Assembly (NCBI RefSeq): GCF_035594765.1 | Contig: NC_085843.1 | Coordinates: 67,316,201-67,380,200 of the forward strand | From: Anolis carolinensis | Lineage: Eukaryota | Direction: 5' to 3' | Length of the DNA stretch: 64,000 bases | Shown: positions 23,881 to 35,582 of the stretch, piece after piece | How positions within the stretch are numbered: the first letter of the stretch is position 1 | Layout of the letters: every line of letters starts with the position of its first letter | Notes under the pieces: generated by a model | Seen by the model: the letters and a program-made list of their open reading frames with translations, nothing else | What the model was told of the DNA's origin: nothing | Database searches by the model: none | Translations under genes and position numbers: made by a program

Positions 23881-24844
23881 TGTCAAGACCCAGGCTGCAG
23901 AGCACCAATAACCATACACAGAGGCCAGAATCTATCTAATATCTTTATTGAAGGAGTATATAAAGTTAATAAAAACAAGTGTAGAAAATAGTCCAGAATT
24001 AGACCTTTCAGGAAAGGTCAAAATTAGTCCAAAGAAACAATGTCCAATATGAAATATTAAGGTCCAAAGTTGTAATCCAATAACCGAAACACTCACTTTG
24101 CCAGGCAAAGTGAGGGGAGATGACAAGGTCCTTTAGTCCATGAACTTGAGCGAGGCTATGGAGTAACTTGAAACAAGGCTTGGTACAAGGCAGCAAAGGA
24201 ACGAGAAGCAAGGACAAGATCAGTGGAATTACTTGGCAAAATCCGGGAAACAAGGCAAGGCTGAGTCCTGGAAAAACAAGGCTAAGTCCTAGGAAACAAG
24301 GCAAGATCCGTGGAGGTAAACAAGGCTGAAAACGGGAACGAAGGCTTGGAAACAGGAACGAAGGCTTGGAAACAGGAGCGCGCTGTCCACACACAACTTA
24401 CTCCCGTAGCTGACGAATTGACTCCGCAAGAACCCTTTGTGGGCAAAACACCTAAATAGGGTCTAGTTTTCCCACCAAAGAGCAGTTCTCTGGGGAACCA
24501 GAAACGAAAGCTAATCTCTGAGTCCAGATGCATGACTCCTTAAAGTTTCCCATGGAAAGCAGGCTTAATCAGCTGAATACTTAGCAGCTATCCTAGCACT
24601 CCTGCGAGACGCTGCTTGAACTCCCCTCTGTTGTTTACAAAACTCGTGGCGAGAAAACACAGGAGATTTAGGCTCAGGGCTTGTTTGACAGACTTCTGGA
24701 AGACAAATCTCTTGCAGGTGCAAGGTTCCCAAATCTGGCTGGGAAAGTTCCAAATCTGACTGAGACGGTGAAAAACCCAAGTTTTCCTCTTCATCTGGCA
24801 CTACAGTGCCAGGAATGGGACTACATGGCCCATGACTCATCACA
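23881..24844 (-). mobile_element. Solo LTR, family B (probably Gypsy-type)
   Basis: TG...CA termini; 5-bp TSD CCCGG (23876-23880, 24845-24849); minus-strand AATAAA near 23945; internal short tandem repeats. Confidence 0.9.
24565..24843 (-). CDS. LTR(U3)-encoded 92-codon frame (EEENLGF ... RRSARIA), possibly the pol/integrase tail
   Basis: Open from LTR base 2; same length as, and gaplessly alignable with, 35303-35581. Expression from this solo LTR is not shown. Confidence 0.6.
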   Translation of the reverse strand: MMSHGPCSPIPGTVVPDEEENLGFSPSQSDLELSQPDLGTLHLQEICLPEVCQTSPEPKSPVFSRHEFCKQQRGVQAASRRSARIAAKYSAD

Positions 24845-24953
24845 CCCGGGTAAACCTAGGTCAGCCCCTTTCGGTCACCAAAAAAAGGATGACTAATCTA
24901 AGGTCATCCAGAGGGTTTCCTTTAACTGAGAAGAGATTTGAACCCTTATCCCT

Positions 24954-25535
24954 GGCCCCTTCAACATTGCCATATAAAATCCAGATTACCTGCTTTGAAC
25001 TGGATTATATGGCAGTGTAGACTCAAGTATGGTTGGTTGAAATGAAAGAGGGGGCTTTCTCTGTGGTCACCCCATCCCTCTGGAACTCTCTCCCTAAAGA
25101 AATCAGAATGGTCCCATCACTCCTCTCTTTTAAGAATCAATTAAAAACTCACCTGTGTGAATTAGCTCATGCAAAGGAATAAAAGTAGACTACCTTCCCT
25201 TGTGACAATGCTGATAACAGATAATTTCAAATTATTGAGATTTATATTAATATTTTATATTTATTTTGATCTGTGCAATTTTAGTCTTATATGATATGTT
25301 TTATACTATATGTTTTATTTGATACTTTGTGAATGTTTTACTTTAATTGTTTATTAATTCGTTTATTATGTTTGTACCGGCATTGAATGTTTGCCATATT
25401 ATTTTGGAAGCCGCCCTGAGTCTCCTTGAGGAGAAGGGGTGGGTTAAAAATAAAGATGATGATGATCCAGTTCAAAACAAATAATGTGGATTATCTGCCT
25501 GATAATCTGGATTAGATGGCAGTGCAGAAGGGGCC
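24954..25535. mobile_element. Palindromic MITE (GGCCCCTTC..AC.CTGCCATATA family, probably PIF/Harbinger) with a nested L2 tail (~25030-25465)
   Basis: Inverted termini ggccccttc...gaaggggcc; the insert matches the L2 3' end (gccgccctgagtc..., aataaa). Confidence 0.65.
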
Positions 25536-33058: not shown

Positions 33059-33381
33059 CAGTAGAGTCTCACTTATCCAACATAAACGGGCCGGCAGAAT
33101 GTTGGATAAGCGAATATGTTGGATAATAAGGAGAGATTAAGGAGAAGCCTATTAAACATCAAATTAGGTTATGATTTTACAAATTAAGCACCAAAACATC
33201 ATGTTATACAACAAATTTGACAGAAAAAGTAATTGAATACGCAGTAATGCTACGTAGTAATTACTGTATTTACGAATTTAGCACCAAAATATCATGATGT
33301 ATTGAAAACATTGACTACAAAAATGCATTGGATAATCCAGAATGTTGGATAAGTGAATGTTGGATACGTGATACTCTACTG
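33059..33381. mobile_element. Tc1/mariner/pogo-type MITE nested in Helitron 3
   Basis: TIR CAGTAGAGTCTCACTTATCCAAC; TA TSD; second copy at 62178-62500. Confidence 0.9.
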
Positions 33382-34718
33382 TACTACTACTGATGTAAGT
33401 ATAAAGGAGGGAGGAGGTCACAGCATAAAAACAACCTAATGCGTACTGACCAACACCACTAGACTATGCCACAGCAGCACGTGGCCAGGCACAGCTAGCT
33501 TATATATAAAAAAGAAAGCATACCTTCTTTGAGAAGAGTAGCAGAAGACTTCTTCGAATTCCTGGACAGGAAAATAGTGGTGGTGACAGCCAGGAGCAGA
33601 TAGATGCTCTTACTTTGGCTCCTAAAAGGGTGTGGAATATTATTTTTCACCATTGTTATCATGATCAAGCTTTAGGTGTATGGTTTTAGCCATCCTGAAT
33701 TATAAAGACACATTTTTGGCAAAGTAGAGTGAAAATGGAGACATAATATTTCACATTGACAACTTTTTATTCACTTTCTAAGATACTTTTTCTTTCATTT
33801 AATTTCATATCAATATTCAGTTGCTGAAATGTTGGACATCTTTTCCTTGTTGCTACTTGTAGGGAATAAATTTGAGCATTTCTAATCCAGATACCTAATG
33901 CTAATGCAAAAAGAATATGAAAGGTAACCACCACAAACCTTGACTAAGCTGTTGGTCTCATTCCTTTTTAAACTTGCATCAAAAAATCTCTCAAATTGCA
34001 TTATGCAGCCAACCTGCTTCAAGAGGATCAAAAGCTAACCTCTTGAACTATGACAAAAAAAACTCCTTTGAAAACACACCGAAAAGGTTCATTAACATTT
34101 TAGACTGCCTGTGCTATCTAGATGAGCATACACACGCATTCAAACTGCCAGTTACAATGTCAGAAGCAATTCTCAGTAAATTGCTTGGTTCTCATTTGGG
34201 GGAGTTTGCCTGAGGGAGTCAGCAAAAATCATTTATGGTGATTCACCATGTAGTAACTAATGAGAGCAGTTTCACATATTCAAATGATTGGTGTGATTAT
34301 CAAACATCATTATGAATCAGATAATGTATCAACTTAATTTGAAAGCAATGAAAAAGCATCACAAAAAAGAGCACTACAGGTTGCAAATTGTATCCAACTG
34401 GTTTGATGAAGTAATGTTTCCTTTTCCTAATCAAAACAATAGAAATCATATCAACAATACACAATTAAGGGGCAATATTCTGCTTTAACTGTCATAGAAT
34501 AATCCTATTGAATCCTGGGATTTGTTGTTTGCTGAGCACATAAAATCACAGAGTTAGGAGATACCACAAGGGCCACCCAGCCCAGCCCCCTGCCATGCCA
34601 GAACTCAATCAAAACATTTGAACCTGAGAACTCTGACAGTTAAGGTGGAATATAGAATTGTAGGTGTGTGGTGCAAAGAGACCCAGACAAAACACTCTGG
34701 GTGTGAAAACCAGAACAC

Positions 34719-35582
34719 TGTGACACCTCAGGCGGTGTGAGCACTGGGAATCAGACACGAAGGCCAATAAACAATCTAATATCTTTATTAAGGAAATAAA
34801 GGAGACAACTAAAAATAATCAGAGTATATAGTCCAGCAATAGACCTTTCAGGAAAGGTCAAATATAGTCCAGTAATATGAAAGTAGATATCCAGTGTTAG
34901 AGTTCAAAGTTTTAAATCCAATAACCGAAACACACTCAAACCTTTAGGCTGTTTGAGTGGGGATTAAGGCAAGATCTGTCAAAGAGTTCCAGGGCTCGAA
35001 TCCAAGGCTAGGATGCAAGGCAAGGCAAAGTTAGTCGGGATAAAGCTGAAACGCTATCCAGGTTTGACAGGGAGACGGGATGCAACGCGGTCTACTCGAG
35101 AGTAGCGTGCTGCGAGACTAGAGACGATGTGAATTCTTCAACTGACACGTTGAACACCGCAAAGTCCAGTTGGTGCCCAGAACTTTTATGGGACTTTGCT
35201 CTCCTCTCCAGCCAGGTGTCTGAACTCTTTCCCAAGGGAAAATGACTAAAGTCAACAACTTGCCAGATGCAATCCTCCCTGAGAACTCTCAAGGGAACCG
35301 GCTTAATTAACGCTTGCTCTCTCCGCTAATCGAGCGCTTCTCCTCAAAATCTGATTCTCCGCGCGCGAAGATTCCCAAAACAATTTGCGGTCAAACATAA
35401 CGTTCTCTGGAGAACCGGGCTGTGAGTCAAGGCCCTTTTTAATTAACTGTGGGCTAAAACTATCAACAGGGGACATCTGGAAGGAAGCGGAATCGTACGG
35501 AAATGGCAGAAACCCCATCTCTTCTTCAGTCTGCTCCGTAATGGCGATGGGGTCATGACTCGGGGGTCTCTGAGACACTACA
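34719..35582 (-). mobile_element. Solo LTR, family C (related to B)
   Basis: TG...CA termini; flanks AACAC/GACAC (5-bp TSD, 1 mismatch); shares the blocks atctaatatctttatt, atagtccag, agacctttcaggaaaggtcaaa and aatccaataaccgaaacac with LTR B. Confidence 0.88.
35303..35581 (-). CDS. LTR(U3)-encoded 92-codon frame (EEEMGF ... RRSARLA), possibly the pol/integrase tail
   Basis: Open from LTR base 2 with no start ATG at the edge; colinear with 24565-24843. Confidence 0.6.
   Translation of the reverse strand, partial: VVSQRPPSHDPIAITEQTEEEMGFLPFPYDSASFQMSPVDSFSPQLIKKGLDSQPGSPENVMFDRKLFWESSRAENQILRRSARLAERASVN

Follow-up and report, generated by a model that had tools for sequence, protein, structure and literature searches.

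A 64,000-nt stretch of the Anolis carolinensis genome (NCBI RefSeq assembly GCF_035594765.1, contig NC_085843.1, positions 67,316,201 to 67,380,200 of the forward strand; hereafter the window) contains two solo long terminal repeats (LTRs), B and C, that are assigned by sequence to one clade of Ty3/Gypsy chromoviruses. Each carries on its minus strand a 92-codon frame; full-length copies elsewhere in the genome show that this frame encodes, within the LTR, the C-terminal tail of an integrase with a chromodomain. Near the end of this tail lies a seven-residue motif, RRSxR(I/L)A, whose substitution pattern indicates selection at the protein level. The motif is probably an HMGN-type anchor for the nucleosome acidic patch that, beside an HP1-like chromodomain, would tether the integration complex to nucleosomes.

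The two frames and the element behind them

LTR B (23881..24844, minus strand; 964 bp, TG...CA) matched the 965-nt LTR of the full-length family B copy L032 along its entire length at 99% identity and was flanked by a perfect 5-bp target-site duplication (TSD), CCGGG (5' copy at 24845..24849 and 3' copy at 23876..23880, minus strand). LTR C (34719..35582, minus strand; 864 bp, TG...CA) was 91-92% identical to both LTRs of the full-length family C copy L065, and its flanks, GTGTC and GTGTT, form a 4/5 TSD. On the minus strand, 24843 to 24565 in B and 35581 to 35303 in C were each translated from LTR base 2 into 92 amino acids (aa) and a stop, and the plus-strand translations of both intervals were riddled with stops. 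A preliminary description, made from the letters alone, had reported two such frames of 279 nt with weak DNA similarity, and this was borne out (112/279 nt identical, ungapped). The ungapped tails were identical at 24/92 residues (shuffle mean, 6.4; 0/20,000 shuffles as high). All the shared features it had listed are present, namely S3/P6/S8/P11, an acidic-GF motif (DEEENLGF at 24772..24795 in B, conserved in the B/C/D/E clade only; TEEEMGF at 35510..35530 in C, read from the translation), F-x-R-x-x-F-x4-R, and RRSARIA (24586..24606) or RRSARLA (35324..35344) 13 residues before the stop. Its claim of gap-free colinearity stood for the equal 92-aa frames and proved partly coincidental otherwise, with BLASTP and MAFFT both placing compensating gaps mid-tail; equal length was rejected as evidence because tails of sister lineages measure 85, 87, 90, 92, and 97 aa. 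In six frames of the window, RRSxR[LI] was matched twice, at the B and C sites only, and 60 shuffles gave 0.35 matches per window. An Rfam scan of 23800-35700 gave no matches, and neither 92-aa peptide had a Pfam match at E 0.1.

In full-length copies, the B tail makes up the final 92 aa of a Pol frame of 1,256 codons. Searching the genome with peptide B gave 150 scored matches, none with stops, of which 25 (counted by eye) end this frame ~5.4 kb from a second LTR, and B-family copies are spread along all large contigs. In L032, a Gag with a CCHC zinc knuckle is followed by an overlapping Pol in which Pfam recognised the order protease, reverse transcriptase, RNase H, integrase, SH3, and chromodomain, the last (PF00385) above the cut-off at residues 1090-1138. 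Beyond the chromodomain, Pol continues for ~25 residues, crosses the polypurine tract (PPT) GGGGGATAG, and stops 92 codons into the 3' LTR. The full-length copies L032 and L065 have paired TG...CA LTRs, a PPT, and a 5-bp TSD. The two LTRs of L032 differ at 3 sites; the LTR pairs of three B copies were 99.7-100% identical, and those of three C copies 95.7-97.1%. Full-length copies of family C, the older sister of family B, are broken; their Pol pieces share 67-87% identity with B, and in L065, L066, and L068, the C tail is in the same frame as the chromodomain. The likeness of B and C is accordingly due to common descent. The peptides of the preliminary description are thus real frames that are not independent products, each being the end of Pol, and a free-standing LTR peptide was rejected, as C also has no early ATG.

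The best PDB matches of the chromodomain were HP1 proteins, with F/W/F of the element aligned to Y/W/F of HP1 at what we take to be the three cage positions; three aromatic cage residues define the type I chromodomain, a methyl-lysine reader. Among database proteins, the nearest were anole 'Gypsy integrase-like' entries whose sequences already contain the tail, and UniRef names the tail-bearing proteins 'Gypsy retrotransposon integrase-like protein 1' of Anolis carolinensis (an automatic name). The chromodomain-LTR junction was found in 20/24 listed sequencing runs, all from one organism, with no RNA run among those having the junction. By every feature tested, the element is an ordinary chromovirus; it resembles other vertebrate chromoviruses in the Gag CCHC knuckle, the overlapping Pol with the same domain order, the PPT, the TG...CA LTRs, and the 5-bp TSD.

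Each LTR in the window has an AATAAA (23944..23949 in B, ~620 nt past the tail stop; 34784..34789 in C; both minus strand), which is likely a polyadenylation signal; with that of B downstream of the tail stop, the tail would lie within the element mRNA. LTR B also has an inverted repeat of 10 pairs at 24092-24114; it lies just before a stretch common to LTR C (TTTCGGTTATTGGATT) and is possibly near the U3/R boundary. A solo LTR alone would not normally express the tail, and the two in the window would carry its coding sequence only passively. Two variant contexts were seen elsewhere. The copy at L309:1480-1866 has lost most of the tail middle in frame and keeps EEENMGF and RRSLRIAA (129 aa of chromodomain and tail), and the RefSeq anole gene model XP_062826559.1 ends in the whole LTR tail with the motif, in frame behind unrelated sequence, as a possible exonised solo LTR or prediction artefact.

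Conservation of the motif across lineages

Tails were extracted from fetched loci using a pattern that required an open frame and an acidic/GF pattern and did not require the basic motif. Of 122 open tails, 90 were distinct and 84 (85-97 aa) were kept, the other 6 being left out for early stops or read-through; they formed 11 clusters at 85% identity. Ratios of nonsynonymous to synonymous differences (pN/pS), which are uncorrected and pooled over non-independent pairs from best-ranked matches, were 0.15 for RRSARxA, 0.34 for acidic-GF, and 0.66 for the remaining tail among 11 natural lineage representatives. In 28 pairs between B-like and C/D-like clades, RRSARIA ranked first among 86 windows of seven residues (78% aa identity versus a median of 22%), with nucleotide identity in the motif at 59% and 80% of the identical residues on different codons. 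Among 24 copies with chromodomain and tail, R1, S3, and R5 were present in 24/24 and R2 in 23/24, position 4 was variable, and arginine was replaced by lysine at 1/72 motif arginine positions. In this B-heavy set, the motif had a pN/pS of 0.23 (P = 0.037 in comparison with random tail codons), the remaining tail one of 0.54, and the chromodomain one of 0.11. The motif serine was invariant on four codons, AGY in B/C and TCN in G/H. Tail lengths differ by whole codons, and residues beyond the motif vary freely.

A further sample comprised 80 loci picked by chromodomain alone. PPT and LTR were recognised in 44/80, with 42/44 tails in frame and RRSxR[ILV] in 38/44; the frame is preserved across families, and the preliminary description had set its loss as a refutation. 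Thirty of the 44 tails belonged to one family, and 8 of the 14 others had the motif; misses were single substitutions, frameshifts, or truncations. The remaining 36 loci comprised 25 copies of family F, 5 further members of the motif-bearing clade, 5 loci that appear to be host genes, and 1 of a new lineage, G. Pol pieces of lineage G were mostly 53-60% identical to B, and its tail of 58 aa is acidic and barely alignable; lineage G has copies that end RRSARLAARNAAE*, with TCA, not AGY, as the motif serine codon. Lineage H is old, with a different tail of ~90 aa in 45 mostly decayed copies. The end is QRRANR* or close to it in most and RRSARLAQRRANR* in some, and the motif was RRSARLA in two, RRSTRLA in two, and RRSNRLA in one. 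In both G and H, the motif is 13 residues before the stop though the tails otherwise hardly align, and none of the inspected G and H tails showed the acidic-GF motif. Over all fetched loci, 135/152 distinct RRSxR[LIV] contexts were exactly 13 residues before the stop. When a tree was built on 150 integrase-chromodomain columns, B/C/E, G, and H grouped apart from family F and from fish and frog elements; support for the grouping was 93/93, below the starred threshold, and H was a long branch.

Outside the anole, RRSxR[LIV] was found within 200 aa of the chromodomain in 0/74 chromovirus proteins with a recognisable chromodomain. RGRP, which we take to be the AT-hook core, followed the chromodomain in 27/74, some with several copies. 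Many fish chromoviruses have short LTR-encoded ends (~20-35 aa), often SP[ED][YF], and the anole tail differs in being longer and in having RRSxR. The conserved SP[ED][YF] within the LTR at the end of many fish tails (P0010-P0035 and P0067-P0083) is a different second motif in the same place. A profile search against 1.84 billion representatives gave 4 matches, 3 anole and 1 weak, repetitive Hydra protein, and a search against 90% clusters, with the best 8,000 candidates scored, gave 3 anole matches and one at E 8.9; both libraries hold annotated proteins only, and absence from other reptiles is not implied. The Hydra and E 8.9 matches are weak and look like chance. A 14-tail profile against PDB gave a single match at E 0.78, which was ignored, and no HMGN.

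A probable nucleosome anchor and its alternatives

Under the proposed mechanism, the tail would stay on the mature integrase, the chromodomain would read a methyl-lysine mark on the H3 tail, and the motif would grip the nucleosome face at the H2A-H2B acidic patch. The tail middle, variable in length and probably mostly unstructured, would be the tether, and the integration complex would be held on chromatin via the two contacts. Phosphorylation of the motif serine could act as a switch; in HMGN, phosphorylation at this serine is proposed to cause release. The lizard H2A and H2B genes were located.

The comparison with known anchors is close. RRSARLAA of families D and G matches HMGN RRSARLSA at 7/8 positions, and RRSARIAA of B matches yeast Dot5 RRSARIAT at 7/8. 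Nucleosome binding by Dot5 requires R1, R2, and R5 and is lost on acidic-patch mutants (PMC13347269). Cryo-electron microscopy places the same arginines of HMGN2 and tardigrade Dsup (RRSSRLTS) in the acidic patch, and modelling suggests that serine phosphorylation would block binding; the authors also caution that AI-based prediction put the anchor in the wrong place (bioRxiv 10.1101/2025.01.06.631586). The arginines essential in HMGN, Dsup, and Dot5 are the invariant ones in the anole motif; the preliminary description's naming of RRSAR(I/L)A as HMGN-like thus gained protein-level selection with the HMGN/Dsup/Dot5 pattern. HMGN is a small chromatin protein, whereas the anole motif is at the extreme C-terminus of an integrase, as part of Pol, and the anole tail has no Pfam or PDB similarity to the HMGN family outside the motif. 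Gag of prototype foamy virus (PFV) and p12 of murine leukaemia virus (MLV) tether integration complexes to the acidic patch (PMC9040877). The foamy virus chromatin-binding sequence and MLV p12 resemble the anole motif in proposed role, an arginine anchor by which the integration complex is kept on nucleosomes. They are Gag products of unrelated sequence, whereas the anole anchor would be on integrase, LTR-encoded, and HMGN-type. A destruction box was rejected for the motif, whose spacing is R-x-x-R and not the R-x-x-L that we take to define that box.

Besides the pooled, uncorrected nature of the pN/pS values, several results weigh against this interpretation. In the 24-copy set, the motif was outside the six lowest-pN windows of 86, because position 4 varies; the LTR start and EEENLGF both ranked better, EEENLGF being second-lowest. 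Family F, in the same genome (25/80 chromodomain-picked loci), has no motif, and the tail is dispensable for chromoviruses because the Pol of this family stops at or just past the PPT. The motif-bearing tail was seen in one genome only, that of the anole. HMGN, Dsup, and Dot5 lack both the constant spacing of 13 residues to the C-terminus and the helix predicted, with low confidence, over the last 27 residues; these could point to another partner. Rich in arginine, the motif could also function in nuclear import or in binding nucleic acids. Family F loci (L249, L254-L256, L261-L262, L266-L277, L280-L282, and L284-L287), which have a short LTR, form a natural control for integration-site comparison.

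The strongest alternative, which we nevertheless regard as unlikely, is that the motif directs nuclear import or acts as a general basic patch for binding DNA or RNA, its HMGN likeness being incidental. The motif is arginine-rich, and C-terminal nuclear localisation signals of integrases are known from Ty1. RRSxR repeats also occur in the N-terminus of plant CMT2, a region needed for nuclear localisation, with the repeats themselves not shown to be the signal in bioRxiv 10.1101/2024.07.11.603080. One arginine-to-lysine change in 72 and a serine kept on four codons are, however, stricter than a basic patch needs, and the free position 4 is the free position of HMGN, Dsup, and Dot5. Import and acidic-patch roles are not mutually exclusive.

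A somewhat more doubtful proposal is that the last ~25 residues are a helix that binds another protein, for instance in auto-inhibition or particle assembly. The partner could be a factor of the host or belong to the element itself (integrase, capsid, or the acidic-GF segment). The constant spacing in 135/152 contexts would suit it, and the conserved acidic segment of the same tail could pair with the basic motif. AlphaFold2 modelling of 174 aa of chromodomain and tail predicted a low-confidence C-terminal helix covering the motif (residues 147-173, pLDDT ~60) behind a tail middle that had a pLDDT <50 and was without structure. The model is, however, poor (mean pLDDT [predicted local distance difference test] 51.7, predicted template modelling score [pTM] 0.18, with the chromodomain itself misfolded), which makes the helix weak evidence; furthermore, residues beyond the motif are free to vary, and G and H keep the basic motif with no acidic-GF seen.

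That the tail is functionless read-through of Pol into U3, with the motif kept by descent or by DNA-level constraint on the LTR, is very improbable: B and C are homologous, the tail overall evolves fast (pN/pS 0.54-0.66), and chromoviruses of fish and plants commonly have a Pol that runs on into the LTR, but the turnover of motif codons with the residues kept, including the serine switch from AGY to TCN, argues against it together with the whole-codon length changes and the 42/44 tails in frame, and the synonymous turnover largely refutes it.

Family A, other repeats, and wider meaning

The window also contains family A LTRs at ~5570-6890 and ~62678-64000 (plus strand), in which a frame from base 2 encodes a Pol tail of ~200 aa with two acidic FxGF motifs, DEETFEGF and EDETFYGF. 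These resemble what we take to be LEDGF/TFIIS-N-domain-binding motifs. In B and C, a true FxGF was rejected for the acidic-GF segment, as the first F of what we take to be that motif is missing. The single internal fragment of family A that was found (L216) is from the Gypsy group; its Pol is 42% identical, it lacks a chromodomain, and it has the same PPT. The parallel that the preliminary description had drawn with an anchor in family A did not survive: A is from another Gypsy lineage with an unrelated tail, and its (L/M)TRSRS was rejected as an equivalent anchor because it is not R-R-S-x-R. What A has in common with B and C is architecture, an LTR-encoded integrase tail, and not the motif.

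Other repeats in the window were recognised from translations. Broken plus-strand frames at 30339-32883 resemble what we take to be a Helitron Rep/PIF1-type helicase, and broken frames at 494-2339 and 56018-57397 (plus strand) and 49866-51809 (minus strand) are presumably of the reverse-transcriptase/endonuclease type of long interspersed nuclear elements. The window also has a tandem array at 15419-16900, with units of 139 bp that follow a 139/139/174 higher-order pattern.

A Pol that runs into the 3' LTR and has a targeting motif there is already known from plant CRM group A, in which a short conserved CR motif at this place is thought to target chromatin, and some beet chromoviruses have a plain extension (PMC3059260 and PMC3605345). 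The anole element is alike in its Pol frame running into the 3' LTR. In CRM group A, the CR motif replaces the chromodomain, whereas the anole motif sits behind an intact chromodomain that lies before the PPT; the layout of family A, with a tail and no chromodomain in L216, is that of CRM group A. Plant CRM is linked to centromeres, whereas the anole copies are along all large contigs. No report of an HMGN-type or RRSxR motif in any retrotransposon was found in a mainly open-access literature judged by listings and term counts.

A broader proposal, offered tentatively as plausible though short of probable, is that a lizard clade evolved a true HMGN-type anchor in its own LTR, making with the chromodomain a two-point nucleosome reader. 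The start of U3 would then be an exchangeable targeting cassette (HMGN-like in B/C/D/E/G/H, acidic FxGF replacing the chromodomain in A, and nothing in F), and solo LTRs would scatter a ready-made nucleosome-binding exon.

Site choice and holding by vertebrate Gypsy elements are little studied, and the motif provides a seven-residue, selection-marked, directly testable candidate on a family with young copies. Growth of the list of HMGN-type motifs was predicted in the structural paper (bioRxiv 10.1101/2025.01.06.631586). If the anchor is confirmed, a retrotransposon integrase would join the short list of HMGN-type proteins (HMGN, Dsup, and Dot5), retrotransposons would reach the acidic patch via integrase where retroviruses do so via Gag, and in animals, as in plant centromeric elements, the LTR would have a second role in encoding modules that target chromatin.

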